From Acidimicrobiales bacterium (GTDB lineage: Bacteria; Actinomycetota; Acidimicrobiia; Acidimicrobiales; GCA-2861595), in assembly GCA_036262515.1 (NCBI GenBank), contig DATAIT010000031.1:8678-72677 (forward strand): 64,000 bases of DNA. Direction: 5' to 3'. Under the pieces are notes generated by a model, which was given only the letters and a program-made list of their open reading frames with translations, searched no databases and was not told the DNA's origin. This document shows, in pieces, positions 380 to 17,816 of this stretch. Every line of letters starts with the position of its first letter. Within the stretch, counting starts at the first letter, position 1. The position numbers were made by a program, and so were the translations under genes.

Positions 380-1528
380 ATGGACAACAAGATCGATGCG
401 ACGCGCTCGCGCGTCGGACCAGGCCAGCGCGTCGCGTTGCGTCGGCTTCGGCTGGCTGTCATGGCGGTGGGGAGCGCAGCGCTCATGGTCGTCGGCACAG
501 GATCCACCCAGGCCATCGCGCCGGGCGACAGCGGCTTGATCGCGTACGAGTCCAACCGCGACGGGTCCAACGACATCCTCGTGATGAACCCGGACGGCAC
601 CATCGAGACGAACCTGACCAAGAATCCGGCCAACGACGTGTTTCCGGCGTGGTCGAACGACAGCACGAAGATCACCTTCTCCAGCGATCGTCACCAGGCC
701 GGGAATCTCGATATCTACGTCATGAACGTGGACGGCAGCGGGGTCACGCAGCTGACCGACTCGCCGGGCGAGGATCGGGGTACCAGCTGGACGGACGACG
801 GTTCCACCATCGTGTTCCACAGCGCCCGCAACCGGATCCTGGGCGGCCACAACTTCGACATCTTCACCATGAGATCCGACGGCAGCGACCCGACGATGAT
901 CTTCCAGAACGGCTCGGCCGCCTACGTATGCGGATCGAGCCTGAACGGCCATATCGTCTTCAACAGCGCCAGCGATCCCACCGGCGAGAACCCGCCGATA
1001 GGGGCCGACCCGACGACCGGCGCGCCCATCTACGACTTCGAGATCTTCACGATGGACATGAGCGGCGGCGACGTGACCCAGCTCACCGACAACACGATCC
1101 TGGACAGCGGGCCGAAGTGGTCGCCCGACTGCCAGACGGTCTCCTACAACAGCCTCGACGCCGGGGGCAGTCTCGACGTCCACCGGGTGGACGCCACCGG
1201 CGCCAACGACGTCAACCTGACCAACGCGCCCGGCATCTTCGACGGCTTCTCCGCGTGGTCGCCGGACGGGAACGAGATCGTCTTCTCGAGCGACCGCAGC
1301 GTCAACTTCGAGCTCTTCAAGATGAGCTCCGTGGACGGCAGCAACGTCCAGCGCCTCACGACCACCAAGCGCGCAGTGGCGGACCTGCGTGCCGACTGGG
1401 GGAGCGCACCGGCTCGCCAGATCCCTCCGGACGACAAGGACCAGTGCAGGTACAACCAGTGGAAGGAGTTCACGACCCCGTCCTTCACCAGCCAGGCGGT
1501 GTGCATCGACTACGTGAACGCCCTTTGA
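380..1528 (+). CDS. secreted PD40/TolB-like beta-propeller repeat protein
   Basis: ORF 380-1528 with a purine-rich GGGGGAAAGGA run just upstream of the ATG. N-terminal signal/anchor LAVMAVGSAALMVVGTGSTQA. Repeated PD40-type blocks: AWSNDSTKITFSSDR, SWTDDGSTIVFHSAR, KWSPDCQTVSYNS, AWSPDGNEIVFSSDR. Confidence 0.85.
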   Translation: MDNKIDATRSRVGPGQRVALRRLRLAVMAVGSAALMVVGTGSTQAIAPGDSGLIAYESNRDGSNDILVMNPDGTIETNLTKNPANDVFPAWSNDSTKITFSSDRHQAGNLDIYVMNVDGSGVTQLTDSPGEDRGTSWTDDGSTIVFHSARNRILGGHNFDIFTMRSDGSDPTMIFQNGSAAYVCGSSLNGHIVFNSASDPTGENPPIGADPTTGAPIYDFEIFTMDMSGGDVTQLTDNTILDSGPKWSPDCQTVSYNSLDAGGSLDVHRVDATGANDVNLTNAPGIFDGFSAWSPDGNEIVFSSDRSVNFELFKMSSVDGSNVQRLTTTKRAVADLRADWGSAPARQIPPDDKDQCRYNQWKEFTTPSFTSQAVCIDYVNAL

Positions 1529-1534
1529 CCGGCC

Positions 1535-1564
1535 GCCGACCGTGCGCTTCCACGCACGGTCGGC
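1535..1564. terminator. GC-rich hairpin between convergent genes
   Basis: Perfect 12-bp inverted repeat GCCGACCGTGCG (1535-1546) / CGCACGGTCGGC (1553-1564) with a 6-nt loop. It starts 7 nt after the PD40 stop. No clear U-tract. Confidence 0.5.
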
Positions 1565-1673
1565 CGTCTGTGCGCAATGATCGCGGCCCGACGGGCCCAG
1601 GCCACCTACGCCAGGGTCGAAGTGGCCGACCCTACGAGCGGGCCGTGGCCGCCGCCCGCCACCTCCCGGACCG

Positions 1674-2134
1674 TTACCTCGGAAGGTCGGTCCGCTCGAG
1701 CAGCTCGTCGAGCTGGACCAGGCCGGCGGCCGTCATCACCCCGACGAAGCGGCCGTCCTCGCACACGGCCAGCCGCTCCCCGCCGGCGGTCTCCATGGCC
1801 CGGATGGCGTCCCCCAGTGGCCACGAGGGCTGCGCCACCGGCACCGATGGCGGCGCCGGCCTACAGACGTCGCCGACGAACCGCCCCGCCCGGCCCACAG
1901 ACACACGACGGCCGCCGCGAGTCCGAGGGCGGGGGCGACGACCTGCACCAGCGGAGCGTGGACGACCGCGTCGAGCAGCACGTCCTTGGTGAGTCGCTCG
2001 AACGCAGCAACGGCCAGCCCGGTCACGGCTCCGGTGACGGTCGCCGGGAGGAGCATCTGCCGCGTCCGGCGGGAGAGGTCCCGCAGTTGCGCCGAGCTGG
2101 GACGCGCGTGCCAGCGGCGGCTGGGGAGGATCAC
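1674..2134 (-). pseudogene. remnant of a ClC chloride-channel gene (N-terminal helix fused out of frame to one CBS module)
   Basis: Frame 1 (GTG 2134, overlapping the marR stop as GTGA) gives LLPATVTGAVTGLAVAAFERLTKDVLLDAVVHAPLVQVVAPALGLAAAVVCLW, a ClC-type N-terminus. After a frame change near 1880-1895 the other frame gives RFVGDVCRPAPPSVPVAQPSWPLGDAIRAMETAGGERLAVCEDGRFVGVMTAAGLVQLDELL, a CBS domain, stopping at 1674. The channel body (about 400 aa) is missing. Confidence 0.45.
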
Positions 2135-2643
2135 CGGTCGGCGGTCTCCCACCCGAACAGGTCTGCTTCCTGCAAGGCCTCCTCGGCCGCAGCCGCGAAT
2201 GCCCGCAGCACGCGCACCGCGTCGGCTGCTGCCGCCTCGCCCATCCTCTCGGCGATGGCTGCAAGGTCCCGCCGCCGGCGCTGCGTCACCCGGCTCACGA
2301 GCCGGCGCCCGGCGGCCGTGACGAAAAGATCGGTCTGGCGTCGATCCTCGGCCGCCTCCCTCCGCTGCAGCAGGCGCTTGCGCACGAGGCGGTCGCACAA
2401 TCGCGAGGCCGACGTGGAGTGGACGCCGAGGGCAGCCGCGAGATCGGACACCGTCGTGCGGTCCCGAGACGAGACGAGCACCAGCACCCGGAACTGGGGC
2501 AGGGTCACGTCGCCCACGCCGGCCAGCGAACGCGCCGCCACCCCGACCAGCGCACGGGACGCCACCAGCAGAGCGTCGCCCGCCTCGGTCGCGTAGCTCA
2601 CCGCATCAAGTGTAGTAGTGCATCCATCGATGGCCCGCAGCAC
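2131..2643 (-). CDS. MarR family transcriptional regulator
   Basis: ORF 2131-2643. Winged-helix block TLPQFRVLVLVSSRDRTTVSDLAAALGVHSTSASRLCDRLVRKRLLQRREAAEDRRQTDLFVTAAGRRLV is typical of MarR. Confidence 0.9.
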   Translation of the reverse strand: MLRAIDGCTTTLDAVSYATEAGDALLVASRALVGVAARSLAGVGDVTLPQFRVLVLVSSRDRTTVSDLAAALGVHSTSASRLCDRLVRKRLLQRREAAEDRRQTDLFVTAAGRRLVSRVTQRRRRDLAAIAERMGEAAAADAVRVLRAFAAAAEEALQEADLFGWETADR

Positions 2644-2692
2644 CGGAGCGCCGGGACCCGAAGCGGCGATCTACCGGCGTCCGATGGAATCC

Positions 2693-2977
2693 CTAGCGGT
2701 CGCCCACCGGCCGGCCGCAGGCCCGGACAGTGTCACGGCCGGCCCGCTTCGCCTCGTAGAGGCACTCGTCCGCCAGGCGCGACAGGTCGCCGGCGACGAG
2801 CCCGACGCCGTCGCAGGTGCACACGCCGGCTGAGGCCGGGCCAGGCGGTACGCCGTCCAGGCTGGCGACGACCGCGGAGGGCAGGTGCTCCGCGCGCGTT
2901 CGGCCCACCCTCCCCAGCTCCGGCCAGCATGAGGACGAACTCCTCGCGGCGAGTCCGGACCGACGCATGACCCGCAC
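2693..2977 (-). pseudogene. 3-prime fragment of a GGDEF (diguanylate cyclase) gene, frame-split
   Basis: One frame reads SVRTRREEFVLMLAGAGEG (degenerate GGEEF strand). The adjacent frame reads EHLPSAVVASLDG...GVCTCDGVGLVAGDLSRLADECLYEAKRAGRDTV (GGDEF C-terminal helix). The N-terminal half of the domain is absent, and a plus-strand gene starts at 3012. Confidence 0.45.
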
Positions 2978-3011
2978 CTAGGCTGCCATCCGCCTGGAAG
3001 GAGGCCACGCG

Positions 3012-3451
3012 ATGACCGTCGACGTCCTCACCGAGATCGACATCGGCCTCCCGGTCGTGACGGTCGGGGCATACGCGGCCGACCCGTCCAACGCTCCCGA
3101 GTGGTACGTCAACATCGAGTCGGCCCGATGGAAGACCGGCCACCGCTGCGGGTCGGATCGGTCGTGGCATTCACCGCCCGGTTCCTCGGCCGGCGCCTGG
3201 CATACGACTACGAGGTCGTCGAGCTCGTCCCCGGCGAGCGGCTGGTCATGCGCACCGCCGACGGGCCCTTCCCCATGGAGACCACCTACACCTGGACACC
3301 GACCCCGAGCGGTGGGACTCACATGACCCTCCGCAACCGCGGCGAACCCGGCGGGTTCTCCCGACTGGCGTCGCCGCTCATGGCTCCGGCGATGCGGCGC
3401 GCCAATCGGAAGGACCTCGCCAACCTCAAGACGATCCTCGAGGGCCGCTGA
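3012..3451 (+). pseudogene. SRPBCC (polyketide cyclase/dehydrase-like) family gene with a frameshift near 3139
   Basis: ORF 3012 frame gives [42 protein letters not shown]. Continuity is only restored in the ORF 3101 frame: [54 protein letters not shown]...NRKDLANLKTILEGR. One base appears to be missing at ACC-GG-CCA. Confidence 0.6.
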
Positions 3452-3493
3452 GCCGACGGCTCGGGACCATGCGACCGCCCCGGCCCGGCCGCC

Positions 3494-4352
3494 TAGGTGC
3501 TCGGGCTGTGCCGGATCAGGAAGTCGACCATCGTGTCGACGACGGCGCGACTCATCTCGTGGCCGGTTCTCGGCACGACGCCGAGCTCGCCCGTCGGAAG
3601 GCTCCGATACACCAGGCCCGCCCCTTCGGCGCTGCAAGACATGTCACGGTCGCCCGTGAGGATGAGCGTGGGGACGGCGATGTCGGCGAAGTCGGCGACT
3701 GAGTAGCCCAGCGGGGCGACGCCGCGGTCGAAGAAGAGTCGGAGGTCTCCCGCCAGTGACCCTCGCCCTGGGCACCGTCGTAGTCGGCCTTCATCGTGGC
3801 GAACATCGCCGCCATCACCGGCGACATGGACTGGATCGTGCGCTCGGCGGCATCGGGGTCCGCTGCGGTGGCATCAGGACGGCCGCCGAAGATGGGGCGG
3901 ATGGTCTGGTGGGCCATGGCATGGGGGTCGAACACGTCGAAGCCGGCGTGGTTGACGAGGGCCCGCACCAGGTCGGGACGCCTGAGGGCCACGACGGTGG
4001 CCGTCGTCCCGCCCTCGCTGAACCCTGCGAACAGCGGCCGGTCGAGCCCGAGGGCGGTCACGAGGGCGACGACGTCGTCGGCCAGGACGTCGAAGGTCGC
4101 CGTCCCGCCCGCGTGCACCGTCGCACCCGAACCCCGTGTGTCGGGGGCGATGACGCGGAAATGCTCCCCGAGCGCGCCGAGATGGTCGACGTGCGCGGCC
4201 GGCGAACCGGCCCACCCCGGTCCCGTCGAGACCAGGCCGCCGTGGAGCAGCATCAGGGGCGGGCCGTCGCCGACGTCGGTGTAGGCGATGTCGATCCCGT
4301 TCGCTCGGATCAGCTTGGCGCCGCGCTCTGCGGCGACGTCGGCGATGGTCAT
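3494..4352 (-). pseudogene. alpha/beta hydrolase gene with a frameshift near 3760
   Basis: ATG 4352 follows GGGAGGG. The N-part reads MTIADVAAERGAKLIRANGIDIAYTDVGDGPPLMLLHGG...FAGFSEGG (nucleophile elbow). The C-part is found only in another frame by own translation: SLAGDLRLFFDRGVAPLGYSVADFADIAVPTLILTGDRDMSCSAEGAGLVYRSLPTGELGVVPRTGHEMSRAVVDTMVDFLIRHSPST, stop 3494-3496. The shift falls in a C3 run at 3760-3762. Confidence 0.6.
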
Positions 4353-4389
4353 GTCATCCCTCCCGTTCGTTGGTTGGTTGGATCCGCGC

Positions 4390-5796
4390 TCATCCGACGG
4401 TGAAGTCGACCGAGGCCGTGGCGTCGTCCCGCAGGACGAGCTTGTACGCGCCCTGCGGAGGATCGTCCACGAGGTACGACGCTCGGAAATCCACGGCCGG
4501 CTTGTCCGGGTAGGGCAGCTCGTTGAGGCTGTCGGCGGCGACGGTCGTACCGTCGGGGAGCGTGACGACGATGGTGCCGTTGAACACGTTCTGCCCGTAG
4601 GGGACGGTGGTGGCGATGCTGGCGAAGTCGACGACCAGGAACCGGTGGCCGCGTGGCGCCTGACGGTACCCACCGGCCAATGGGTCGTCGGCCCTGGCCT
4701 CGGCCCTGCGCACGTCCAGCGTGAGCCGTCCCGCCGAAAGGCGAGTGGCGGCGAAGACCACCGGTACCGGCTCGAGGCTGGCCACCGTTCCGGCTGAGCC
4801 GAGCGGCACGACGGCCTGGTTCCGGTCCGACGCTCCGAAGGTGACCACGGCGTCGCCGAGCGAGAAGTCGTTCCCGACCTCGAACGACAGCGTGCCCTTG
4901 CCGGTCGAACGCCCGGGCACCGTCGGGAGGTCGCTGGAGTAGGCCAGCTCATGGCTGCGGCTGTGGGATTCGACGAAGATCGTCCGCTCGAGCACGACGT
5001 CCTGGTCGCCCTGGTTCTCGAGGGACGCGGCCACGTCGAGCCGGCGCACATCGCCGACCGTGTGCAGGACGGCCCGCTGGAGCGTGATCTTGAACCCTGC
5101 GTACCAGAGGGACCTGCCCATCTCGACCTCGGCGTCGCGACCGCGCACCGACGACGCGGCATGCGTCGTCTCCGGACTGGTGGCGTCGTCGACGAACCGG
5201 TTGACCACGAGGCTGGCGGCGGCCAGACCCACCAGCAGGACGACGAGCCGTGGCCCACCGTACGAGCGGCGTCGCCGTGGTAGAGCCGGCGGTGGTTCGG
5301 GAGTGGGCATCGGCGCAGGGCCGGGCGGGGCTGTCGGCCCGAGCAGCTCTTCGAGCCGGGCGATGAGACGACCCACGTCGTAGTCCCACCGGTCGTCGCT
5401 CAGTTCGATGGCCTGGCGGCGCCCGAGGACGGCGATCGACTCGGGAAGATCGGACGGCCCCGGCGGCCCCGCCCCTTCGACCAGGACCGGGATGACGTCG
5501 ATCCCCTTGTGCAACGCCGACGCGATCTCGAGGCGCACGAAGTCGCCGGGATCGTCGAGGCGCCGACGACCCGACGTGTCGGTGATCGTGAGCCAGTCCT
5601 TCCCGATCAGGGCGATGACCGCTCCAGAGCCCGCGACGGCCGCCTCGATGGTGGCGACGAAGTCGGCGCCGGGGCGGATGGCGTCGATGTCCCGGAACAC
5701 GCCGTCGTCCCCGAAGCGGTGGCGCAGCGCATCGTCCAGCCGCCCTCCGTATCCCGACGTGTCGTCACGGCGGTAGCTGATGAAGACCGGTTTCAC
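4390..5796 (-). CDS. membrane-anchored TIR domain protein with an extracytoplasmic beta-rich C-terminal region
   Basis: GTG start 5796 overlaps the CHAT stop (GTGA 5793-5796). Residues 1-150 are TIR_2-like: VFISYRRDD, conserved Glu in DFVRLEIASAL (E90, codon 5527-5529). Then a Pro-rich linker, RRRR, and one TM helix (LVVLLVGLAAASLVVN). The C-terminal region of about 230 aa forms two beta-rich repeats resembling DUF4352-type sandwiches (tentative). Confidence 0.9.
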   Translation of the reverse strand: MKPVFISYRRDDTSGYGGRLDDALRHRFGDDGVFRDIDAIRPGADFVATIEAAVAGSGAVIALIGKDWLTITDTSGRRRLDDPGDFVRLEIASALHKGIDVIPVLVEGAGPPGPSDLPESIAVLGRRQAIELSDDRWDYDVGRLIARLEELLGPTAPPGPAPMPTPEPPPALPRRRRSYGGPRLVVLLVGLAAASLVVNRFVDDATSPETTHAASSVRGRDAEVEMGRSLWYAGFKITLQRAVLHTVGDVRRLDVAASLENQGDQDVVLERTIFVESHSRSHELAYSSDLPTVPGRSTGKGTLSFEVGNDFSLGDAVVTFGASDRNQAVVPLGSAGTVASLEPVPVVFAATRLSAGRLTLDVRRAEARADDPLAGGYRQAPRGHRFLVVDFASIATTVPYGQNVFNGTIVVTLPDGTTVAADSLNELPYPDKPAVDFRASYLVDDPPQGAYKLVLRDDATASVDFTVG

Positions 5797-8744
5797 GCCG
5801 GGCCCACGGTGCCGGCCCCACCGGCCACCCCGCGGGCGGCGCCCGGCAGGAGCGACCTGGCCAGGTCGGTGAGGCTCGAGCCGCGTTGCAGCTCGCCGAC
5901 GTCGCGCAGGTGGTCGACGACGGTGTCCCGGTCGCGGCGGCTGGAGCGCGTGGCGAAGGCGTCCAGGTACAGCCCCTCGAGCCGGTGAAGATCCGCCGGC
6001 TCTCCGAGCAGGTAGCGCGTGAGCGCCAGGTCGGCCAGCATCACGCGCTGCCAGAAGTCCTCCGGGTCGAGCGCCTTCGCCTCAGCGCGATCGGTCCCCC
6101 CGGTCGCATCCCCGGGCCCTGCCGCCGCCCGTCCCGGAGACGGCGGCTCCACCGCCGCCAGCGCAGCCCGGGCCTCGGCCTCGGGCACGGGGGCCCCGGC
6201 GAGCGCGTGCATCTGCAACCAGTTCAGCGCGTGGTACGGCTTGGGCCGCCCATGCTTCGAACCGAGCTCCGACGCCTCGCCATACCGACGGGCCGCCTCG
6301 GAGACGTGGCGCCGGCGCTGGTCGCCGCCCACCAGGGTCGCCGCCTTCTTGTGGAAGCTTCCCAGCAGGGCCAGCCGTTCGGGGGTCTCGCCCAGCCCCA
6401 GGGCCAACTCGAGGTGGGCCCCCGCCGCCTCCAGCAAATCACCGACCTGGGCGGCGGCGTCCGCTGCGGCGCCGGCATCGACGGCGGCGCGCACCTGCTG
6501 CTGGGCGAGGCGCACCTCGAAGTTGCCGAGCTGCTCCAGCAGCTTCACCGGCGCCGTGTTGCTGTCGGCGTGGTCCCACGCCCGCCGGTAGCACTCCACC
6601 GCCTGGGCGTAGGCGCCGAGCTCCCCGTAGGCCAGGCCAAACTCGTACAGGACCGGCGGGACGTCCCACCCGCTGGTGGCGAGCCGGCGGCGATGGCCGT
6701 CGAGCTCGGCCACGAGCGCCCGGCCGCGCGTGGACAGCTCCTCGAAGTCGGGGAGCCCGATCTTCCCGGCGAGCACGGTGATCGTTCGCAGTCGCCGCAC
6801 GAGCTCGCCGGCACTGACCATGTGGTGCTCGGCTTCCGCAGCGGCGCCGGCGCTGAAGAGGCGGTACCCGGGATCGCCGTAGCACTGGAACGCCGCCCAC
6901 GTGGTCGACGCCGGGTACCGGCGGTGGACCATCTCGCGCCCGGTCTGGACGGCGGCGCCGAAGAGGGCTCCGCCGAGGAGCTCCTCGTAGAAGGTCTCGG
7001 CGAAGACCACGGCCGCGTCGTCGTCGACGGCCCAACCGGCGGCCACCACGGCGTGGACTCCCAGGCACATGAGCTCGCGCGCCACGCTGGCCGCGAGGCG
7101 GTGCCGGTCCGTCGGTGCGTTCGAGCGGTCGTCGACCCGGGCCAGGTGACAGCAGTTGAGGAACACCAGCTCGGGAACAGCGGGAAGCTGGCGGACCACG
7201 TTGGCGGTGATGGCGGTCTCGCCGTCGATCACCACCCCCGAGGCGGCGGGATCGGCCGGCTCGAAGACCCCGTGGGCGGCGATGTGGACGACCCGCCACT
7301 CGGCGGAGAACAGTGCGTCGAGCACCCGGCGGCCGGTGGTGCCGGTGAGCTGCGGGAACGAGTCGAGCACCGGGTCACCGTGCTCGTCCCACACGAGCGC
7401 AGAGACGTCGAACTTCCTCCCCAGCGCCGCCGAAACGGCTGCCCCTTCGCGCCCCGCCCCCGGCAGCCCGCTCGCTCCTGGCGGCGGCGGCGGATTGCCC
7501 ACCACGAGCACACGCGACCCGACCGGCGGCCGGGCCGGCAGGCGCGACCGCTCCATGTCGCGGAACTGGCGGAGGAACCCGCCGCGCAGCGCCAGCTCGC
7601 TGGCCCGGCGGCCCCCGAAGCGGGCCGTGAGCGCCTCCCACGGAAGGTCGGCCGTGTTCTCGTCGACGATCAGCTGGAGGTTGTCGCTCTTCGCCAGATC
7701 GCTCTTCAGGTCGTTCGGGAGCAGCAGCTCGTAGAGCGTGTTGCCCACCTGGCCGTCGGGCCGGGCGTCGCGGACGGCGCCTTGCACGAGGCGCTCGATG
7801 GCCCGGAGGTCGATCGCCACCTCCAGGGCCGCTGCGCGCGCCCGGCGACCGATGGCGGTGAACTCGAGCACGGCGACGGAACCGGGCCCCTCCTCCGGCG
7901 GGCCGTCGTGGCGCTCGCGGCGAGGATTGCGGATGATGACCCGCTGCCAGTCCCCCGACCGCTGGAGGCCCGACAGCGACGCGGGGAGACCTCCCTCGCG
8001 GATCCGGAGTCGCTCGTGGAGGACGAGCTCGGTGTGGCCGGCCGTCCCGACCTGGGCCAGATCCCTCGACCTGCGGACGGCGTGCGCCACACGTTCGGCC
8101 CGGTCGCTGAGCACCTCCAGGAACTCCAGCCCGGCGATCCGCACGTGGTCCCAGGCCCGGATCCCGGTGACACCGTCGCGCTGCGTGTGGAGCGCCTGGT
8201 TGGCCAGGATGAGGCCGTCGACCATGGCGGCCACGCAACTCTCGACGGAGATGGCGCCGACGCCCCAGGTGCCGACGGGGACAGCCGAGACCTCGAGGGC
8301 CTGGATCGGCCGGTCGGCCTCCCCCCGGGCGAGGCGGGACTCCATCTCGCGGACCGCGTAGCAGAGCAGGCCGGCCGACACGGCGGCGGTGAGCCGGTCG
8401 CGGGTCAGCTCTCCCGGCAGGTCGAGCCCGACGACGATCGCCCCAGGCGGGTAGCCGGGCCTGCCGCCGGCCAGGCCGGGGGCGTCGACGACGATGGCGT
8501 CGCCCACCCGCTCGGGATACTGCCGGAGAAGCTGCCGGGTCGTGAGACGCCTGCCCAGTCGCTCGTCGACGAACGACTCGGCACCGCCCAACGGCGAGCC
8601 CAGGAAGTGGCCGACCAGGACGTGGCGGCCGGCGAACTCCAGGCTGGCGTGGGCGGCGGAGACGACGACGGGTTGCGGGGCCGCGCCGGGCGGCACCGCC
8701 TCGCCGCTTCCCGCCGACGTCCCGGGCGTGGTCATCGCCGTCAA
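5793..8744 (-). CDS. CHAT (caspase-fold) domain protein with C-terminal TPR-like repeats and an unassigned N-terminal region
   Basis: ORF 5793-8744 (start TTG 8744 or ATG 8735). CHAT core: VLVVGNPPPPP, WRVVHIAAHG (His codon 7272-7274), LVFLNCCHLA (Cys codons 7149-7154), AVVAAGWAVDDD, FQCYGDPGY. The C-terminal region of about 330 aa is helical and repeat-like (YEFGLAYGELGAYAQAVECYRRAW). The N-terminal region of about 370 aa has no recognised motif. Confidence 0.9.
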   Translation of the reverse strand: MTAMTTPGTSAGSGEAVPPGAAPQPVVVSAAHASLEFAGRHVLVGHFLGSPLGGAESFVDERLGRRLTTRQLLRQYPERVGDAIVVDAPGLAGGRPGYPPGAIVVGLDLPGELTRDRLTAAVSAGLLCYAVREMESRLARGEADRPIQALEVSAVPVGTWGVGAISVESCVAAMVDGLILANQALHTQRDGVTGIRAWDHVRIAGLEFLEVLSDRAERVAHAVRRSRDLAQVGTAGHTELVLHERLRIREGGLPASLSGLQRSGDWQRVIIRNPRRERHDGPPEEGPGSVAVLEFTAIGRRARAAALEVAIDLRAIERLVQGAVRDARPDGQVGNTLYELLLPNDLKSDLAKSDNLQLIVDENTADLPWEALTARFGGRRASELALRGGFLRQFRDMERSRLPARPPVGSRVLVVGNPPPPPGASGLPGAGREGAAVSAALGRKFDVSALVWDEHGDPVLDSFPQLTGTTGRRVLDALFSAEWRVVHIAAHGVFEPADPAASGVVIDGETAITANVVRQLPAVPELVFLNCCHLARVDDRSNAPTDRHRLAASVARELMCLGVHAVVAAGWAVDDDAAVVFAETFYEELLGGALFGAAVQTGREMVHRRYPASTTWAAFQCYGDPGYRLFSAGAAAEAEHHMVSAGELVRRLRTITVLAGKIGLPDFEELSTRGRALVAELDGHRRRLATSGWDVPPVLYEFGLAYGELGAYAQAVECYRRAWDHADSNTAPVKLLEQLGNFEVRLAQQQVRAAVDAGAAADAAAQVGDLLEAAGAHLELALGLGETPERLALLGSFHKKAATLVGGDQRRRHVSEAARRYGEASELGSKHGRPKPYHALNWLQMHALAGAPVPEAEARAALAAVEPPSPGRAAAGPGDATGGTDRAEAKALDPEDFWQRVMLADLALTRYLLGEPADLHRLEGLYLDAFATRSSRRDRDTVVDHLRDVGELQRGSSLTDLARSLLPGAARGVAGGAGTVGPA

Positions 8745-8864
8745 CTTCTAGTCGATGGGCAGGTTCTCGACGGAGACTCCTGGGAGCGTGCCGCGAATCG
8801 CCGCGCGGGAACCAGCATCGACGGACCAGAGGACGCCGTCGAACCAGCGCCGTAGGGTGCTGCC
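8745..8864. promoter_or_regulatory. divergent intergenic region between the CHAT-TIR operon and the SLOG-like gene, with repeat elements
   Basis: 120-bp non-coding gap bounded by in-frame stops at 8748-8750 and 8853-8855. It contains the inverted repeat TCGACGG (8818-8824) / CCGTCGA (8836-8842), flanked by direct repeats GAACCAGC (8809-8816 and 8841-8848). A third TCGACGG lies at 8767-8773. No -10/-35 assignment attempted. Confidence 0.3.
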
Positions 8865-9464
8865 GTGCCGGGCGCACCTCCGACCGACCCGCGTGCGAGC
8901 TTCGATCGGGTGGTGGTCGCCGGCGGTCACATGGTCGACCGTCCCGACCGCCCTGCGCCGCGGTTCCCGGCGGGATCCGAAGGCACCGTCACCAGCGCCA
9001 TCGGCTCGACACTCGACCGCTGGGTCACCGGACGGGGAACCTTGATCGTCTGCGGCGGCGCCCGCGGGGCCGACATCATCGCCGCCGAGCAGGGGCTGGC
9101 GCGCGGTGCCGACGCATGGCTGCTCATCGCCATCCCGGAGGCCGACCACCTCGCCGGCTCGGTGGAGCTGCCCGGCACCGACTGGGCGGACCGGTACCGC
9201 AACCTCCGCCGCCGCTGCCCGACCTGGTTCCAGGACGATGAGCTGCCACCCCTCCAGCCGGGCGAGGACCCCTTCGAGCGCAACAACGAGTGGAGCCTGC
9301 GGGTCGGGATCGCCCAGGCGCCGCCCCACCAGCTGTTCGTCCTCGCCGTCTGGGACGGCGCCGGCGCCGACGGCCCCGGGGGCACCTCCCACCTGCTCGA
9401 GCGCGCGCGCGCCGCCGGAGCGACGGTGGAGACCATCCACCCGCGGACCGGCACCGCGAGCTGA
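8865..9464 (+). CDS. LOG/DprA-like (SLOG superfamily) Rossmannoid protein, uncharacterised
   Basis: GTG 8865 is the first possible start after the in-frame TAG at 8853. Two signature loops of the LOG/SLOG fold are present: LIVCGGARGADIIAAE (GGARGAD = 9054-9074) and DGPGGTSHLLERA (PGGTSHLLE = 9375-9401, like PGGxGTxxE). GC3-rich codons. Confidence 0.6.
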   Translation: MPGAPPTDPRASFDRVVVAGGHMVDRPDRPAPRFPAGSEGTVTSAIGSTLDRWVTGRGTLIVCGGARGADIIAAEQGLARGADAWLLIAIPEADHLAGSVELPGTDWADRYRNLRRRCPTWFQDDELPPLQPGEDPFERNNEWSLRVGIAQAPPHQLFVLAVWDGAGADGPGGTSHLLERARAAGATVETIHPRTGTAS

Positions 9465-9522
9465 GCAGCAGGAGTCAGCCTAGCCCGACCTCGCCGAACT
9501 GCTCGCCCTCTGTGAGGACGGC

Positions 9523-9568
9523 AAGATGCGCTATATGCATCCGGAATCCGGATGTTTCAGCGCATCTT
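9523..9568. terminator. nested AT-rich hairpin between the convergent SLOG-like and caspase genes
   Basis: Outer 9-bp stem AAGATGCGC (9523-9531) / GCGCATCTT (9560-9568). It encloses an inner 7-bp stem CATCCGG (9538-9544) / CCGGATG (9548-9554) with loop AAT. This is locally the most AT-rich stretch in the area (CTATATGCAT). Confidence 0.4.
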
Positions 9569-9611
9569 CCGACCGAAGGTTTGCGCCCGGTCCCTCGCTC
9601 GGAGGGTGGGC

Positions 9612-12188
9612 TCAGCTCGGATCCAGGTCCACCACCTCGTAGGCGAACGACATGTCCTGGGCGTGCACGAATCCGTCGACCGGATGGCGCCCGATCCGGC
9701 CTGGCGCGGCACCGGCACCGAAGCGCTGATGGGGAAGAAGCGACGTCCGGTACACGCCGACGCTCGCCCCCTGGGCCGCGGCGACGATCCGATCGCCGGT
9801 GCGGACGACGGCCGCCACGGCGGCGGCCGATCCCGCTATCACGGCCGCCTGCGGCGCAGCCGCGGCCAGACCGGCGAGCGTGGCCACGGCCCCCTCGAGA
9901 TCGACGCTGCTGGCCTCGGCGACCAGGAGATCGGCGAGATCGGCCTGGCGCCCGTCGTCCTTGCCCAGCCAGATGGCGATGTCGACGAACCGCCCGACGG
10001 GGCCCTCGAAGAGGAGGAGGTCGTCGAACGGGAGCCGGTCGCCGTCCCTGGCCCGATCGATGCGCGCCGTGGCCGCCGTGTACGGCTCACCGGAGCCCTC
10101 CGGCGGCACCGTGACCACCAGGGCGTCGAGCCGCACGGCCGCCGCCAACAGAGAGCGCGTGCTGTGGACGCTGACCTCCTTCAGCCGCACGGCCACCCGA
10201 CTCGGGGCGCCGACCGCCCGAGGGACCACCAGCCGGAACGACGGGTCCGGGCGTTCGTCCACCTCGAAGTGCGGCTCGTCGACCTCACCACCGCGCTGCT
10301 CTGCGTGGAACACGAAGTCGAGGTGGTGGACGCGGTAGCGCGTGGGAACCGTCTGCTCCGTCGGCCGGGCGTCGCGGCGGCCCGTGTCGAGGTCCCGGAT
10401 GAGGCGTCCCAGCGAGGACGCCGGTTCGCCGCCGACGCCTCCGGCCTCCCGCGACCGCACGCCGGTCTGCTCGAGCCGCTCGAGCCCGTCCACCTTCGCG
10501 TCCGCCACGATGGTGACCATCGTCTCCGGGCGGGGTGCGCCGGCGGGGACGTCGTCGGGCCAGAACAGCTCGATCCCGTCGAGCCGTCCGGCCAGATCCT
10601 CTCCCAGCGTGTAGCGCTCGCCGGGCTCGAGCGTCACCCCGGCGGGCTCCGAGGCCGTCTGGACCGAGACGGCGCCCGACACCCCGACGTCGAGGACGCT
10701 GACGTACCTCCTCTCGGCCGACCCATTGCCGAAGCGGATGACGAGCCGGTCGCCGCCGAACAGGTGCTCCCCCGAACGGTCGAGCTCGGCTTCGCCGCCT
10801 CCGGGGAGAAGGCGGGCGTACGACACCTCGACCTCGTCAGGCAGGCCGGCCGGGCCGGCGCCCGACGCCAGCTCGCGCACATGGGTGGCCCGTGCCAGCT
10901 TCCGCAGGTCGTCTGCGACGAGGGTCAGCGCGCCGGGGCTCACCGGGCGTGGCGCGGTTCCGAGTGGCTGGCCGCCGGCGTCGAGGACGAGCATCCCGTT
11001 GTCATCGAGCTGGACGGTGGCCACTACCCCCGTCGGGCGTTCGGTGACGCGGACGTGGGTCGACCCACGAAGGGCGGCGGCGACACGGACCCGCTCGGGG
11101 TGGTCCAGCGGGAGGATCGCCACGGGGCGCGCACCGAGGGCGACGTCGACCGGATGGGCCGACGCCCCTGTGGGCAGTGCATCGAGGGCGATTCCCCGGA
11201 GGGCGAGCCGGGCCCGATCGCCCACGATCCGTTCGACGACCGCCGTGGCCAGGGGGTGCCGGCGGTCGCCCGACGGGCCGACGATGTCGTAGGTGTCGCC
11301 CTCGCTCATCCCGAGCAGCACGGCGCCCTCGAGCACGGCCGCCCCGCCGTCCACCACGACCGGGAGCACGCCGGTGTCGTCGCAGGTCTCCGTGGTGAAC
11401 AGAAGCCTGTTGGCCGGTCCTTCGAGCTCCGGTCGCTGCTGCGGCACGACGTCCATGACCGCGGGGCGCACCAGGTCGAGCACGGCACGCCAGGTGAGCG
11501 CCCCCGCCTGCCCGCTGGTGAGGATCGGCACGAGGGTGCTCGTCAGAGCCCCGTGCGACCCGCCGAGTGCGGTGGAGGCCAGCTCGTAGGCGCTCTCGTC
11601 GGGCGAGCACGCCACCACGCGCACGGCGAGGCGGTTGGCGTCGCCCGCGGCCAGGTCGGCTCTCGGGTCGGCACGAAGGGCCGAGAGGCGGCGCCCGACA
11701 TCGTCCCACGGGAAGGCGCCTCGCCGGTCGTCGGCCTTCGGCAGCATGGCGGGATCGCGGGACATGCGGGCCGAGTGGCAGCAGTCGAGGATGCTGGTCA
11801 CGTTGGGCGACCGCTCGGTGAGCTCGAGCTGCAGCAGACTCAGCTCCTGAGCGAGCAGGCCGCGGAAACGGCCGTTCGAGTGGTCGTCGACATCGGTGGG
11901 CACCAGGAACTGCAACCACTGCGGCTGCGCAGGATCCGACTCGACCAGCGGGTTGCGCTGGCGGCCACCGTGGCCGGAGTAATAGACGGCGGCCGCGTCG
12001 TCGCTCGCCGTGTCGTCGATGAGCCCGCGATAGCGCTCGACGATCCCGTCGTACGTCGCCTCCCGCTCGATCGCCCGGGTGACGGTGAACCCGAGCGAGG
12101 TCAACGCGTCGGCCACTACCTCGACGTCGCCGTGCACGCCGCGCAGCCCGCCGGTCTGGCTGCCGATCACGAGCGCACGCCTGGCCAT
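9612..12188 (-). CDS. caspase-fold (peptidase C14) protein with a ~600-aa uncharacterised C-terminal extension
   Basis: ATG 12188 follows GGGGAGG. N-terminal C14 core: RRALVIGSQ, AAVYYSGHGG (His73, 11970-11972), SILDCCHSA (Cys136/137, 11778-11783). The remaining ~600 aa have no TM segment and no recognised motif. Confidence 0.9.
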   Translation of the reverse strand: MARRALVIGSQTGGLRGVHGDVEVVADALTSLGFTVTRAIEREATYDGIVERYRGLIDDTASDDAAAVYYSGHGGRQRNPLVESDPAQPQWLQFLVPTDVDDHSNGRFRGLLAQELSLLQLELTERSPNVTSILDCCHSARMSRDPAMLPKADDRRGAFPWDDVGRRLSALRADPRADLAAGDANRLAVRVVACSPDESAYELASTALGGSHGALTSTLVPILTSGQAGALTWRAVLDLVRPAVMDVVPQQRPELEGPANRLLFTTETCDDTGVLPVVVDGGAAVLEGAVLLGMSEGDTYDIVGPSGDRRHPLATAVVERIVGDRARLALRGIALDALPTGASAHPVDVALGARPVAILPLDHPERVRVAAALRGSTHVRVTERPTGVVATVQLDDNGMLVLDAGGQPLGTAPRPVSPGALTLVADDLRKLARATHVRELASGAGPAGLPDEVEVSYARLLPGGGEAELDRSGEHLFGGDRLVIRFGNGSAERRYVSVLDVGVSGAVSVQTASEPAGVTLEPGERYTLGEDLAGRLDGIELFWPDDVPAGAPRPETMVTIVADAKVDGLERLEQTGVRSREAGGVGGEPASSLGRLIRDLDTGRRDARPTEQTVPTRYRVHHLDFVFHAEQRGGEVDEPHFEVDERPDPSFRLVVPRAVGAPSRVAVRLKEVSVHSTRSLLAAAVRLDALVVTVPPEGSGEPYTAATARIDRARDGDRLPFDDLLLFEGPVGRFVDIAIWLGKDDGRQADLADLLVAEASSVDLEGAVATLAGLAAAAPQAAVIAGSAAAVAAVVRTGDRIVAAAQGASVGVYRTSLLPHQRFGAGAAPGRIGRHPVDGFVHAQDMSFAYEVVDLDPS

Positions 12189-12225
12189 GTCGCCTCCCCG
12201 AGCCGTTGCCCGAGCCTTGCACGCC

Positions 12226-12248
12226 GCCGCCGGTCAGGGTCCGGCGGC
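12226..12248. terminator. hairpin downstream of galT / upstream of the caspase gene
   Basis: 8-bp inverted repeat GCCGCCGG (12226-12233) / CCGGCGGC (12241-12248) with a 7-nt loop, in the 82-bp gap between the galT stop and the caspase start. No U-tract. Confidence 0.35.
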
Positions 12249-12270
12249 TCGCTGCCCCGGGGCCCGGTGG

Positions 12271-13254
12271 TCAGGATCGTCCCGGCACGACGGCCCGTAG
12301 GTGCTCGGCCGCGTCCTCCGGGGTCACGTCGTTGAGGAAGGCGCCGGCGCCGAGCTCCGAGCCGGCCAGGTACTTGAGCTTGGTTGCACTGCGGTGGGGC
12401 GGCGTGAACTCGATGTGGAAGTGGCTCACCGGCTGCCACTGGCCGTCGTCCGTCGGCGCCTGGTGCACGACCATCACGTAGGGCATGGAGAAGCCGAACA
12501 GCCCGTCGTAGGCGCGCAGCACCGACGCCAGCAGGTCGGCCAGGGCGGCCCGCTCGGGGTCACCGAGGTCGAGCAGGCTGGGGGCGTGGCGGCGGGCGGT
12601 GACGTGCACCTCGTAGGGGTACCGGGCCGCGAAAGGCACGAAGGCCAGGAAGCCGGCGTTCTCGTCCACGACCCGCACGCCGTCGGAGCGCTCCTTGGCC
12701 ACCACGTCGCAGTGCACGCAGGTGCCCCGCGCCGCGAGGTGGGCCCGGGCGGTGAGGAGCTCGAGCAGCGGCCGGGGTGGGATCTCGGGATAGCCGTAGA
12801 TCTGCCCGTGCGGGTGGTGGAGGGTCACGCCCATGGCCTCGCCCTTGTTCTCGAACACGAGCACGTAGGCGACCTCGTCGCGGTTGCCGAGCCGCTCGTA
12901 GCGGTCGGCCCACACCTCGACAAGCCGCCGGATCCCCGGCGCCCCCAGGTCGGCCAGCGTGCTGGTGTGGTCGTCGGAGTAGACCACCACCTCGGTGGCA
13001 CCGAAAGCCGGGGCCACCCGGTACAGCGCGCCGTCCACGTCCAGGGGGGGCGGCGGCTCCGCCATCAGCGCAGGAAACCGGTTGTCGAACACCACGACCT
13101 CGTAGGCCGGCCTCGGCACCTCGGTGAGCGGGAACCCTGGTCTTGTCGGGCACAGCGGGCAGTGCTCCGACGTGGGCAGGAACGTGCGGTCCTGGCGGGC
13201 GCTGGAGATCGTCGTCCACTGGCCCGTCGTCGGGTCGAGCCGCCGCTCGTTCAC
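12271..13254 (-). CDS. galT: galactose-1-phosphate uridylyltransferase
   Basis: C-terminal 327 aa of ORF 12271-14184. GTG 13254 overlaps the GH2 stop (GTGA). Motifs: EHCPLCP zinc motif, VFENKGEAMGVTLHHPHGQIYGYP (HPHGQ active site), HFHIEFTPP. Confidence 0.9.
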   Translation of the reverse strand: MNERRLDPTTGQWTTISSARQDRTFLPTSEHCPLCPTRPGFPLTEVPRPAYEVVVFDNRFPALMAEPPPPLDVDGALYRVAPAFGATEVVVYSDDHTSTLADLGAPGIRRLVEVWADRYERLGNRDEVAYVLVFENKGEAMGVTLHHPHGQIYGYPEIPPRPLLELLTARAHLAARGTCVHCDVVAKERSDGVRVVDENAGFLAFVPFAARYPYEVHVTARRHAPSLLDLGDPERAALADLLASVLRAYDGLFGFSMPYVMVVHQAPTDDGQWQPVSHFHIEFTPPHRSATKLKYLAGSELGAGAFLNDVTPEDAAEHLRAVVPGRS

Positions 13255-16352: not shown

Positions 16353-17816
16353 ATGAGCCATGAGCCGCGTCGTGCAGGCCGCCGACCCTGGAACCGCCCC
16401 GCCGAGGGCACGGTGACCGCGGGCACAGATCATCGGGACGAGGACGTCGTCCTCGTCAGCGACCTCCACCTGGGACCGGGCGCGCTGCACTGCGTCGAGA
16501 CGTTCTTCCACGACGCCGAGTTCGCCCGCTTCCTCGACTCCTTGGTGCGCCGGGCCCAGCCGGAAGGTCGACGATGGCGGCTGGTCATCCTCGGCGACTT
16601 CCTCGACTTCCTGCGCTGCGAGCTGGTGACCAACCCGGAGGGCGGTCCCCCGACGGAGACGATCGCCATGGCGACCCTGGATCGGATCGTCGCCAACCAC
16701 GACGTCGTCTTCGCCGGGCTGGCCCGCTTCCTCGCCGCCGGATTCCCGGTCGACATCGTGATCGGCAACCACGACGCCGAGCTCGCCCGCCCTGCGCTGC
16801 AGGACCGCGTACGTTCCGTTCTGGCCGCTGCCGGTGCGGGGGGCGCGGCGGACCGGGTGCGCTTCCACCCGTGGATCTACTACCTCCCCGGCGTGGTCTA
16901 CGCGGAGCACGGCAATCAGCACGACGGCTTCAACGCGTTCAGCACGGTGCTGGACCCGTACGCCGAGGGCCCGGGCGGCCCGCTCGAGCGTCCGATCGGG
17001 ACCCATCTGTTCGAGGCCGTCGAACGCCTCCTCTACTCGATCGACCCCTGTCCCGACCATGCCAGCTCGCCGCTCCGCTACTACTGGCTGGCGGCGCGCC
17101 GCCGGCCCGGGTCGGCGGTGGACGCCCTGCGGCGCCAGGCGGCGATCTTCCTCGACCTGTTCCGCCACGCCCGCTCGCTGTCGGGACCGTCGTGGCCCGC
17201 CCGGCGGGCCACCTACCGGGCCGACATGCTGGAGCCGTACGCCAAGGAGATCGGCCTCGACTTCCGGGTGGTCGCCGCCATCGACGAGATGTCGTCGGCG
17301 TCGGAGCCACCGTCCTCGCTGCTGGTGGAAGAGGCGGTCAAGATCAACACCCGCCGCTCGGGTCCGGCGCTGGCGCTGCTGTCACTGGGGTACCTCGCGT
17401 CCAAGAGAGGCGCCACGAGGACGCTCGCCATGGGTGGCTCGGCGGCTGCGGCCATGGCGTTCGTGCGCAAGGGCCTGCCGCTGTCGCCCACCGGTCGACA
17501 CGTCATGTACCTGCAACGGGCGGCCATGCGCATCCACGACCTGCTGACCGAGGAGGAGGCAGGCGTCCCGTGCTACGTGTTCGCCCACACCCACGCCGCC
17601 CAGCACCTTCCGCTCGGGTTCGGACCGGAGGCGCCCCAATACCTCAACACAGGCACTTGGGCCTGCCTGGCTCCTCCGGCGGCCGAGACGCTGCGCACCA
17701 TCAGACCGACCTTCGTGCACATCATGCCGGGACGGGACGGGGTGCCTCCGGCCGCTCGCCTCCTGGCGTGGAACGCAGCCTCGGAGTCAGCGGAGACCCT
17801 GCGGTTCCAGGCGTAG
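16353..17816 (+). CDS. metallophosphoesterase (calcineurin-like)
   Basis: Motif series VLVSDLHLG, LVILGDFLDFL, IVIGNHDAE, YAEHGNQHD, VFAHTHAA. The C-terminal half is unassigned. Confidence 0.85.
   Translation: MSHEPRRAGRRPWNRPAEGTVTAGTDHRDEDVVLVSDLHLGPGALHCVETFFHDAEFARFLDSLVRRAQPEGRRWRLVILGDFLDFLRCELVTNPEGGPPTETIAMATLDRIVANHDVVFAGLARFLAAGFPVDIVIGNHDAELARPALQDRVRSVLAAAGAGGAADRVRFHPWIYYLPGVVYAEHGNQHDGFNAFSTVLDPYAEGPGGPLERPIGTHLFEAVERLLYSIDPCPDHASSPLRYYWLAARRRPGSAVDALRRQAAIFLDLFRHARSLSGPSWPARRATYRADMLEPYAKEIGLDFRVVAAIDEMSSASEPPSSLLVEEAVKINTRRSGPALALLSLGYLASKRGATRTLAMGGSAAAAMAFVRKGLPLSPTGRHVMYLQRAAMRIHDLLTEEEAGVPCYVFAHTHAAQHLPLGFGPEAPQYLNTGTWACLAPPAAETLRTIRPTFVHIMPGRDGVPPAARLLAWNAASESAETLRFQA

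Follow-up and report, generated by a model that had tools for sequence, protein, structure and literature searches.

A four-gene island for TIR, CHAT–TPR-S, SLOG and caspase-fold proteins in an Acidimicrobiales bacterium: a candidate nucleotide-controlled protease system

Four neighbouring genes of an Acidimicrobiales bacterium, situated in a 64-kb stretch of contig DATAIT010000031.1 (assembly GCA_036262515.1; the whole 64,000 nucleotides analysed are called the window below), code for a TIR protein, a CHAT protease fused to a TPR-S domain, a stand-alone SLOG protein and a second, metacaspase-like protease. The genes are intact and have kept their catalytic residues, and TIR, SLOG and caspase genes co-localise non-randomly with CHAT–TPR-S genes across phyla. 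Together they look like a candidate bacterial cell-suicide or immune circuit. We consider the chances about even that the island is a protease system controlled by a nucleotide second messenger, Thoeris-like and belonging to the TIR/SLOG–TPR-S class. The idea of a nucleotide-signal-controlled protease system had been put forward in an earlier reading of this DNA (the original prediction) and fits the domains, the folds and the co-localisation described here.

The class goes back to a prediction by Burroughs and Aravind (2020), which is summarised in a passage of 10.1101/2023.05.26.542521: TPR-S proteins go together with genes for TIR, YspA-SLOG, patatin, calcineurin and caspase proteins, and TPR-S is predicted to be the sensor of nucleotides made by TIR or SLOG enzymes. 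As far as this summary describes the class, the island agrees with it in that TPR-S is fused to an effector encoded beside TIR and/or YspA-type SLOG genes, and in the same further partner families. Three precedents are of relevance for the island. Type VIII Thoeris, which consists of the TIR protein ThsB and the CMP hydrolase–TPR protein ThsI, has been validated experimentally and responds to canonical cyclic ADP-ribose (cADPR) (10.64898/2025.12.03.692087). The nucleotide-activated protease SAVED-CHAT cleaves and activates a second protease, PCaspase (10.1101/2023.06.23.546230). In type IV Thoeris the TIR signal N7-cADPR activates the caspase-like ThsE (10.1101/2024.10.24.620036). On our best reading, sensing by the island resembles type VIII Thoeris and its output resembles the cascade from SAVED-CHAT to PCaspase.

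The four genes and their products

Because the window has a GC content of ~73%, long spurious open reading frames (ORFs) occur on every frame, and real genes were told from these by the GC content of the codon positions. All four ORFs have a GC content of 0.88-0.92 at the third and of ~0.5 at the second codon position, a coding signature that is missing from the overlapping long ORFs of other frames, and a sliding frame plot backs them from end to end. Both analyses confirm the four intact adjacent genes of the original prediction. Its motif coordinates were all arithmetically right (CHAT protein, H491 at 7272-7274 and C531/C532 at 7149-7154; SLOG protein, G64-D70 at 9054-9074 and P171 at 9375; caspase-fold protein, H73 at 11970-11972 and C136/C137 at 11778-11783), and the ORF coordinates bear out the 4-base overlap of the TIR GTG start with the CHAT stop codon at 5793-5796. 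Its domain assignments held as well, TIR_2, CHAT and Peptidase_C14 by Pfam and the SLOG fold by predicted structure.

The CHAT protein is composed of a macro-like N-domain, a linker, the CHAT domain and a TPR-S domain; an alternative ATG start at 8735 would give 980 amino acids (aa). The CHAT domain was recognised by Pfam with E 3e-30, and its H491 and C532 are invariant in 24 homologues. A full-length AlphaFold model was obtained with a predicted local distance difference test (pLDDT) of 82. Foldseek matched the protease domain to Csx29 (best, E 4e-9), to the SAVED-CHAT filament (8tl0) and to separase. C-terminal to the CHAT domain, and thus fused to an effector domain as in the predicted class, TPR-S (PF20308) was found with E 1.1e-10 (42.4 bits, gathering threshold 27.6). 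In the model this end of the protein consists of helical repeats that match TPR proteins in Foldseek, and a comparison of the TPR-S region with PDB sequences returned generic designed TPRs only.

For the N-domain, PF02789 was matched by 8 of the 39 family members (best E 1.2e-8), the family profile matches the leucyl aminopeptidase 3jru (E 5.5e-5), and Foldseek found N-domains of leucyl aminopeptidases and 2dx6. The N-domain of M17 leucyl aminopeptidases has a macro-like fold. The original prediction was thus right about the CHAT domain but had missed both the TPR-S and the macro-like N-domain, and of its statement that neither SIR2 nor Macro is present, the first part stands (there is no SIR2 domain) whereas the second is doubtful given this resemblance to Peptidase_M17_N.

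At 1,800-2,000 aa most CHAT–TPR-S relatives are larger, and they have an additional lipase-like alpha/beta-hydrolase of the DUF7379/LCAT/PGAP1 type at the N-terminus (e.g. L018:7241-12880, L012:4446-9860 and most of L001-L080, L numbers denoting the loci of relatives). This module is missing from the CHAT protein in the window's clade; one of its loci, L081, has a separate LCAT-like gene.

The TIR domain was identified by a TIR_2 match (E 7.7e-12), and its closest solved relative is the TIR domain of human SARM1. E90, in DFVRLEI, lines up with the catalytic glutamate of SARM1 in DWVHKEI, which we take to be E642, and it is invariant in nine homologues. Judged by the alignment, the catalytic glutamate expected of an enzymatic SARM1-type TIR is in place. 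TIRs of this type are efficient NADases, and the SARM1-like type is known to make cADPR.

After the TIR domain come a linker rich in proline, an RRRR stretch, a single strongly hydrophobic helix and a beta-rich C-terminal domain of 265 aa. Since RRRR precedes the helix, the positive-inside rule suggests that the TIR domain is intracellular with the C-terminus outside; as a caveat for membrane anchoring, two homologues with the same C-terminal domain have no membrane segment. The C-terminal domain has no Pfam match, and none of the TIR partners at the 86 CHAT loci analysed below has it. The TIR type of the window is common to more than 2,900 database proteins, in which the C-terminal domains vary (PASTA, PD40, FGE-sulfatase, SPOR, TPR and FHA). 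This variability suggests a receptor-like design, in which a sensing domain, often extracytoplasmic, would be joined to a cytoplasmic enzymatic TIR.

With the SLOG protein, Pfam alone gave weak matches below the cut-off (YAcAr E 0.0057, DprA E 0.068). An AlphaFold model based on an alignment of 43 homologues reached a pLDDT of 94. Its best PDB match in Foldseek was YpsA (2nx2, E 4.7e-6), followed by DprA, ShosA, LOG and the MHR of TRPM; the matches to YpsA, DprA, ShosA and LOG had a probability of 1.0. By its modelled fold the protein is a member of the SLOG superfamily related to YpsA/YspA, Rossmannoid with a glycine-rich loop, and model and Foldseek together bear out the LOG/SLOG assignment of the original prediction. 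The GGARGAD loop is conserved among the homologues, of which at least 196 were found. Seventeen residues are invariant among these (including H22, D25, R29, R33, R67, D70, S99, W107 and N141), consistent with an enzyme or with specific ligand binding.

The caspase-fold protein matches Peptidase_C14 with E 4.9e-13. The residues D135, C136, C137 and H138 do not vary in 32 homologues, among which H73 shows a conservation of at least 90%. The C14 domain is followed by a conserved region of ~600 aa, and full-length conservation is seen in the family, which has 550 representatives at E<1e-30. The C-terminal ~600 aa gave no PDB match and, apart from a DUF4384 match in one member (E 0.009), no Pfam match. 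Towards the end of the protein (aa ~730-858, window 9615-10000) we noticed an alanine-rich, moderately hydrophobic stretch at aa 767-795 and after it the conserved motif IGxYRTS…GRHP…AQDFSFxYEV.

The CHAT and SLOG genes are divergent, and the 120 bp between them presumably hold a shared regulatory region. A sigma-70 consensus was not found in 8745-8864, and promoter and terminator scans of 4200-12400 returned nothing; at 73% GC such scans are uninformative. The features of the island are compiled in Table 1.

Table 1. Coordinates of the genes, domains and intergenic region of the island (window positions)
Feature	Position	Strand	Evidence and remarks
TIR protein, 468 aa	4390-5796	-	TIR_2 match; GTG start overlaps CHAT stop codon
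TIR domain, aa 4-144	5365-5787	-	putative catalytic Glu E90 encoded at 5527-5529
Predicted transmembrane helix, aa 184-202, after RRRR stretch	5191-5247	-	Kyte-Doolittle mean 2.27 over 19 residues
Conserved beta-rich C-terminal domain, aa 222-468	4393-5133	-	37-59% identity in full-length homologues P0168-P0172 and P0175
CHAT protein, 983 aa	5793-8744	-	CHAT and TPR-S Pfam matches; AlphaFold model
Macro-like N-domain, Peptidase_M17_N type, aa ~24-230	8055-8675	-	family profile and Foldseek
CHAT caspase-fold protease domain, aa 333-624, H491 and C532	6873-7748	-	Pfam, conservation, Foldseek
All-helical TPR region with TPR-S, aa ~645-965	5850-6812	-	PF20308 at aa 712-845 (6210-6611)
Divergent CHAT/SLOG intergenic region, 120 bp	8745-8864	no strand	gene coordinates
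SLOG-fold protein, stand-alone, 199 aa	8865-9464	+	AlphaFold model and Foldseek
Caspase-fold protein, 858 aa	9612-12188	-	Peptidase_C14 match
Metacaspase-like C14 domain, aa 3-256	11421-12182	-	Pfam; metacaspases are the nearest solved structures

Linkage of the four genes across genomes

With a profile of the CHAT protein at least 596 loci were found in species-representative genomes of many phyla (Acidimicrobiia, Acidobacteriota, Burkholderiales, Cyanobium, Bacteroidota, Nitrospira, Geobacter and others). The best 80 of these loci and six loci of close relatives, 86 in total, were searched by an ORF scan with iteratively built hidden Markov models (HMMs), covering flanks of up to 10 kb on each side of the CHAT gene; CHAT ORFs were masked for the caspase counts. 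A separate caspase gene was present in 18 of the 80 loci, in 17 of them at most 160 bp from the CHAT gene. Counting all 86 loci, 23 have a caspase gene, usually directly adjoining. TIR genes were likewise found in 18 of the 80 loci, 16 of them within 3 kb of the CHAT gene, and SLOG genes in nine. In a binomial test comparing near flanks (at most 3 kb, 42% of the sequence searched) with far flanks, the near flanks were enriched for caspase (p=1.4e-7) and TIR genes (p=4.6e-5); enrichment of the SLOG genes was not significant in this test. The partners hence cluster with CHAT homologues beyond chance, as had been anticipated, although the four genes are unequally linked.

All four families occur together in L018, a metagenome-assembled genome of the Burkholderiales, in L081-83 and in L084. 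Within the window's clade, which comprises seven loci including the window, SLOG is present in six, and TIR, the 858-aa type of caspase and a peptidoglycan-binding M15_4 peptidase in four each. The divergent SLOG and CHAT genes are kept in L081, L084, L086 and L174, and the 858-aa type of caspase adjoins CHAT also in L081, L084 and L172. The arrangement of the class is thus found in the window, with the TIR gene overlapping the CHAT stop and the SLOG gene divergent at 120 bp, and recurs in other phyla. SLOG was even found with TPR-S in the absence of CHAT, as a two-gene operon in L090 and as TPR-S–SLOG fusion proteins in L012 and L023. SLOG and TPR-S are the most constant pair.

Compared with L081 and L084, the window has a different TIR, located on the opposite side of the CHAT gene, and neither an LCAT-like lipase nor an M15_4 peptidase. 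A tblastn search of the whole window revealed no remnants of the accessory genes of these sister loci (LCAT-like lipase, M15_4 peptidases, cytosolic TIRs). The different TIR and the missing lipase and peptidase point to modular turnover around a stable core of divergent SLOG and CHAT genes.

Several observations weigh against the interpretation of the island as one nucleotide-controlled system. In 46 of the 80 CHAT–TPR-S loci no TIR, SLOG or caspase gene is located in the flanks covered, which extend up to 10 kb on either side; a TIR in cis is thus not a requirement. The TIR partners are of many kinds (TIR-patatin, TIR-SIR2 with SIR2_2, TIR-FGE-sulfatase, TIR-SPOR, TIR-WD40, TIR-nSTAND and caspase-TIR), the TIR of the closest relatives L081 and L084 is of a different, cytosolic type, and P0172 and P0173, which share the C-terminal domain of the window TIR, sit in unrelated contexts without CHAT. 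The caspase gene forms a separate transcription unit on the same strand as galT and 83 bp downstream of it, and CHAT was present in only 3 of 80 caspase-centred metagenome loci, many of those contigs being short. The surroundings in the window are ordinary genes and not a defence island. Ligand binding by TPR-S is a prediction, and binding of cADPR by the TPR of ThsI has been proposed only. No system model of PADLOC or NCBIfam matches the island.

Some of these observations would also be expected if the functional unit consisted of the divergent SLOG and CHAT–TPR-S genes only and if the TIR and the 858-aa caspase were chance neighbours or loosely and interchangeably recruited: the TIR types are swapped between close relatives, homologues with the C-terminal domain of the window TIR are found without CHAT, and the caspase family is beside CHAT in just three of the 80 caspase-centred loci. 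The presence of SLOG in six of the seven loci of the window's clade and its pairing with TPR-S even without CHAT (L090, L012 and L023) agree with such a two-gene unit. On the other side, the 4-nt overlap of the CHAT stop and the TIR start points to co-transcription, and the spacing of the TIR genes (within 3 kb in 16 of 18 loci, p=4.6e-5) and of the caspase genes (within 160 bp in 17 of 18) is difficult to ascribe to chance. The 858-aa type of caspase is again beside CHAT in L081, L084 and L172, and all four genes are together in a distant phylum (L018). We regard a unit restricted to SLOG and CHAT–TPR-S as possible but rather unlikely, and the nucleotide-controlled system including all four genes as the preferred interpretation.

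Further genes were noticed at the loci of relatives. L016 contains a 420-aa caspase-TIR fusion (2329-3591, -) beside a second TIR gene and an operon of caspase and CHAT. In L091 (1688-10648) the neighbours of a SLOG homologue are a DUF4062 protein and, as separate genes, DUF7379 and CHAT; DUF4062 has recently been reported as a TIR-like NADase family. A peptidoglycan-binding Peptidase_M15_4 protein recurs in sister loci of the window's clade (L081:6538-8768, L084:5248-6051, L173:14981-15748 and L172:6048-7100; none in the window), a hint at a cell-wall-directed effector. Weakly patatin-like proteins are encoded beside the SLOG gene of L089 (8983-9999) and beside the CHAT gene of L173 (13354-14238), echoing the pairings 'SLOG-patatin' and 'patatin–TPR' of the literature.

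Surroundings of the island in the window

The flanking genes code for a frameshifted alpha/beta-hydrolase, MarR, an SRPBCC fragment, galT, a GH2 glycosidase and a Metallophos-like protein. No NTPase or cyclase is among them, with a housekeeping-type GGDEF-EAL gene ~6 kb off, and no CRISPR-like repeat array was detected in the whole 64-kb window, in line with the earlier statement that the island has no ATPase, cyclase or CRISPR partner. Genes of mobile elements were not found in the flanks.

The alpha/beta-hydrolase gene (3496-4380, -) follows immediately downstream of the TIR gene. A frameshift near 3790 puts its N-terminal part, which has the nucleophile elbow GFSEGG, and its C-terminal Hydrolase_4 part into different frames; the gene is either a pseudogene or the result of an assembly indel. 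The tract at 1500-3700 contains an apparently intact MarR gene (2134-2670, -), an SRPBCC/Polyketide_cyc2 fragment (3101-3451, +) and CBS and GGDEF-like fragments, and no transposase or integrase was seen there. The original prediction had described a decayed tract fitting an accessory region. One hydrolase is clearly frameshifted, but MarR appears intact, the flanks are ordinary and there is no defence island. Farther away a PD40 beta-propeller protein is encoded at 380-1528 (+) in DNA of lower GC content (0.64 compared to 0.73); other organisms, too, have window-type TIR domains with a PD40 propeller as C-terminal partner. A gene with weak resemblance to calcineurin-like metallophosphoesterases (16353-17816, +) is located ~4 kb from the caspase gene. 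Phosphoesterases of this type have been reported to accompany TPR-S systems as accessory genes, but since galT and the GH2 gene intervene, the gene in the window is probably unrelated.

The housekeeping-type flanks raise the question whether the same circuitry, in an actinobacterium that is multicellular or filamentous, could serve regulated cell death or the signalling of envelope stress and not anti-phage defence. No CHAT relatives were found in IMG/VR viral contigs. The TIR is predicted to be membrane-anchored, and TIRs of its type carry PASTA, SPOR or PD40 C-terminal domains elsewhere. Sister loci contain genes for a peptidoglycan hydrolase (M15_4 with PG_binding_1) and for lipase-like proteins, and an enrichment of systems of this kind in multicellular bacteria has been noted (PMC8195603). 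However, the characterised relatives (Thoeris IV and VIII, SAVED-CHAT and Borvo) are all anti-phage systems, and patchy presence, swapped partners and the ISL3 transposase adjoining the sister locus L081 are typical of defence genes. A role outside of defence appears improbable to us.

Relation to known systems and a proposed pathway

A search for named defence systems with PADLOC matched none, giving weak domain-level matches only for the window proteins and their relatives (SAVED_TIR, ThsB, SAVED_CHAT, BovA and a 'caspase' model), and the NCBIfam matches of the window proteins were far below threshold. Neither PADLOC 2.0 nor NCBIfam holds a model for the CHAT–TPR-S or SLOG proteins. Filing the island under Thoeris I-IV, Borvo, CBASS or CRISPR-associated systems was rejected, the matches being weak or below threshold. 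Our literature search, which reached Burroughs and Aravind (2020) at second hand, found no published description of a TIR with CHAT–TPR-S system, and the text and the table section covered of a recent Thoeris survey contain no CHAT effector, PF12770, PF20308 or window-type TIR motif. The island had been proposed to be an undescribed system. In agreement with this, PADLOC and NCBIfam gave no match; yet the wording was too strong because TPR-S ties the island to a class that has already been predicted and of which one member, type VIII Thoeris, is validated. The island is a new combination of individually known parts and not a categorically new system.

With type VIII Thoeris the island shares a TIR gene beside an effector with an Aravind-type TPR, the window TIR being SARM1-like. 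It differs in its effector, a CHAT protease and not a CMP hydrolase (Pfam found no nucleoside-hydrolase family in the window proteins), as well as in the extra SLOG protein, the second protease and the transmembrane TIR. SAVED-CHAT with PCaspase, a hybrid of type III-B CRISPR and CBASS (PDB 8tl0), likewise combines a CHAT protease fused to a nucleotide sensor, which in the island is a predicted one, with a second caspase-fold protease; in the window only the SLOG gene intervenes between the CHAT and the caspase gene. In contrast to SAVED-CHAT, the putative sensor in the window is TPR-S and/or the macro-like domain, and the presumed source of the nucleotide is TIR/SLOG and not Cas10 or a CD-NTase. 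The only SAVED match was weak and covered the CHAT region alone, and there are no cas genes, CRISPR array or cyclase.

Type IV Thoeris resembles the proposed model in that a TIR-made signal would control a killing protease of the caspase fold, and a TIR and a caspase-fold gene are indeed found within 8 kb of each other in the window. That the island simply is this named system, TIR plus the caspase-like ThsE, is nevertheless highly improbable. The TIR is coupled to the CHAT–TPR-S gene and not to the C14 protein, which belongs to a different, 858-aa family and is encoded in a separate, non-adjacent unit ~3.8 kb from the TIR gene with the CHAT and SLOG genes in between, so that a two-gene operon of TIR and ThsE is not present. 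No Thoeris model exceeded its threshold (NCBIfam type III ThcB4, 24 bits with a cut-off of 220), NCBIfam gave no type IV match at E up to 0.01, and PADLOC, whose version 2.0 predates type IV Thoeris, gave weak ThsB matches only. The motif FISYRR of the window-type TIR does not occur in the part of the Thoeris TIR table that was covered. An equivalent of the type I protein ThsA (SIR2–SLOG or TM–Macro) was not found either, as there is no SIR2 domain and the SLOG protein stands alone at 199 aa.

Two more systems share the CHAT domain. Csx29, the TPR-CHAT protease of the type III-E Craspase, came first in the structural comparison (Foldseek E 4e-9) and likewise has both TPR and CHAT, a similarity at the level of the fold only. 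The domain order is reversed, and the window has neither Cas7-11/gRAMP nor a CRISPR array nor Csx30/31. Craspase is activated by RNA-guided target binding and not by a small molecule. Borvo, a single-gene system, uses a CHAT-domain protein (BovA) in defence; the match to the BovA model is weak and partial (21 bits, profile positions 539-663 of 711) and not full-length.

On the basis of the three precedents, TPR-S in type VIII Thoeris, SAVED-CHAT acting on PCaspase and type IV Thoeris, we propose the following chain for the nucleotide-controlled protease system. The membrane-anchored SARM1-like TIR would be switched on by a cue perceived via its C-terminal domain, possibly at the envelope, and would turn NAD+ into an ADP-ribose-derived signal by means of E90, canonical cADPR being the most economical guess. 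This signal may be perceived by TPR-S of the CHAT protein, or alternatively by the macro-like N-domain, and would thereby render the CHAT protease active. The CHAT protease would cut downstream proteins, most plausibly the adjoining 858-aa metacaspase-like protein, and the resulting two-tier cascade would end in growth arrest or cell death. In relatives, CHAT proteolysis may also activate lipase-like and peptidoglycan-hydrolase effectors. The SLOG protein could make, mature or edit, or destroy the nucleotide ligand, or could present it to TPR-S. What was observed is the parts list and the co-localisation; from these we infer the biochemical steps, what the signal is, in which direction the cascade runs and what biological role it has.

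The same parts could be connected differently. The TIR could be an NAD+-depleting effector, and the CHAT–TPR protein could sense a phage or damaged-self protein and then cleave TIR, caspase or lipase into activity. Peptides are common ligands of TPR repeats, Csx29 is under the control of protein and RNA partners and not of a nucleotide, and SARM1-type TIRs are efficient NADases. TIR partners elsewhere are joined to effector domains, for example patatin and SIR2_2, and the fused lipase-like DUF7379/LCAT domain of most family members could be freed by self-cleavage. Nevertheless, the TPR is specifically of the TPR-S type. TPR-S recurs beside TIR and SLOG enzymes, which handle nucleotides, and is also present in ThsI of type VIII Thoeris, a system driven by cADPR. 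In addition, the stand-alone SLOG protein would be left without an obvious role, and other TIR partners bear sensor-type domains (FGE-sulfatase, SPOR, WD40 and nSTAND), which fits TIR as the input. We consider the TIR as an effector to be unlikely and return to the TIR as the presumed source of the signal.

A more far-reaching version of the proposed chain would be a 'Toll-like' pathway, in which a transmembrane TIR receptor would perceive a cue from the envelope or from outside the cell by its outer domain and release an NAD+-derived messenger into the cell; this messenger, gated or edited by a dedicated SLOG enzyme, would act through TPR-S and/or macro-like sensing on CHAT and from there on the metacaspase. 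TIR relatives carry PASTA, SPOR, PD40 or lectin-like domains at the place of the outer domain of the window TIR. This version is speculative and we think it rather improbable. If true, no two-tier protease cascade driven by a TIR would have been known before it, and a TPR-S sensor would for the first time have been shown to control a protease.

If the model of a nucleotide-controlled protease system is right, the island joins the NAD+-derived messengers made by TIR proteins, as in Thoeris, with protease cascades of the caspase type, as in SAVED-CHAT and PCaspase, two subjects of bacterial immunity that research has kept separate up to now. The predicted TPR-S sensor would then have a second, very different output, and the ligand of TPR-S would become testable by a protease read-out. 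A membrane-anchored SARM1-like TIR raises the possibility of sensing at the level of the envelope, and would resemble the animal Toll-like receptors more closely than the known cytosolic ThsB proteins do. As the CHAT–TPR-S family is large (at least 596 loci) and has no counterpart in PADLOC or NCBIfam, the characterisation of one member would annotate many genes.

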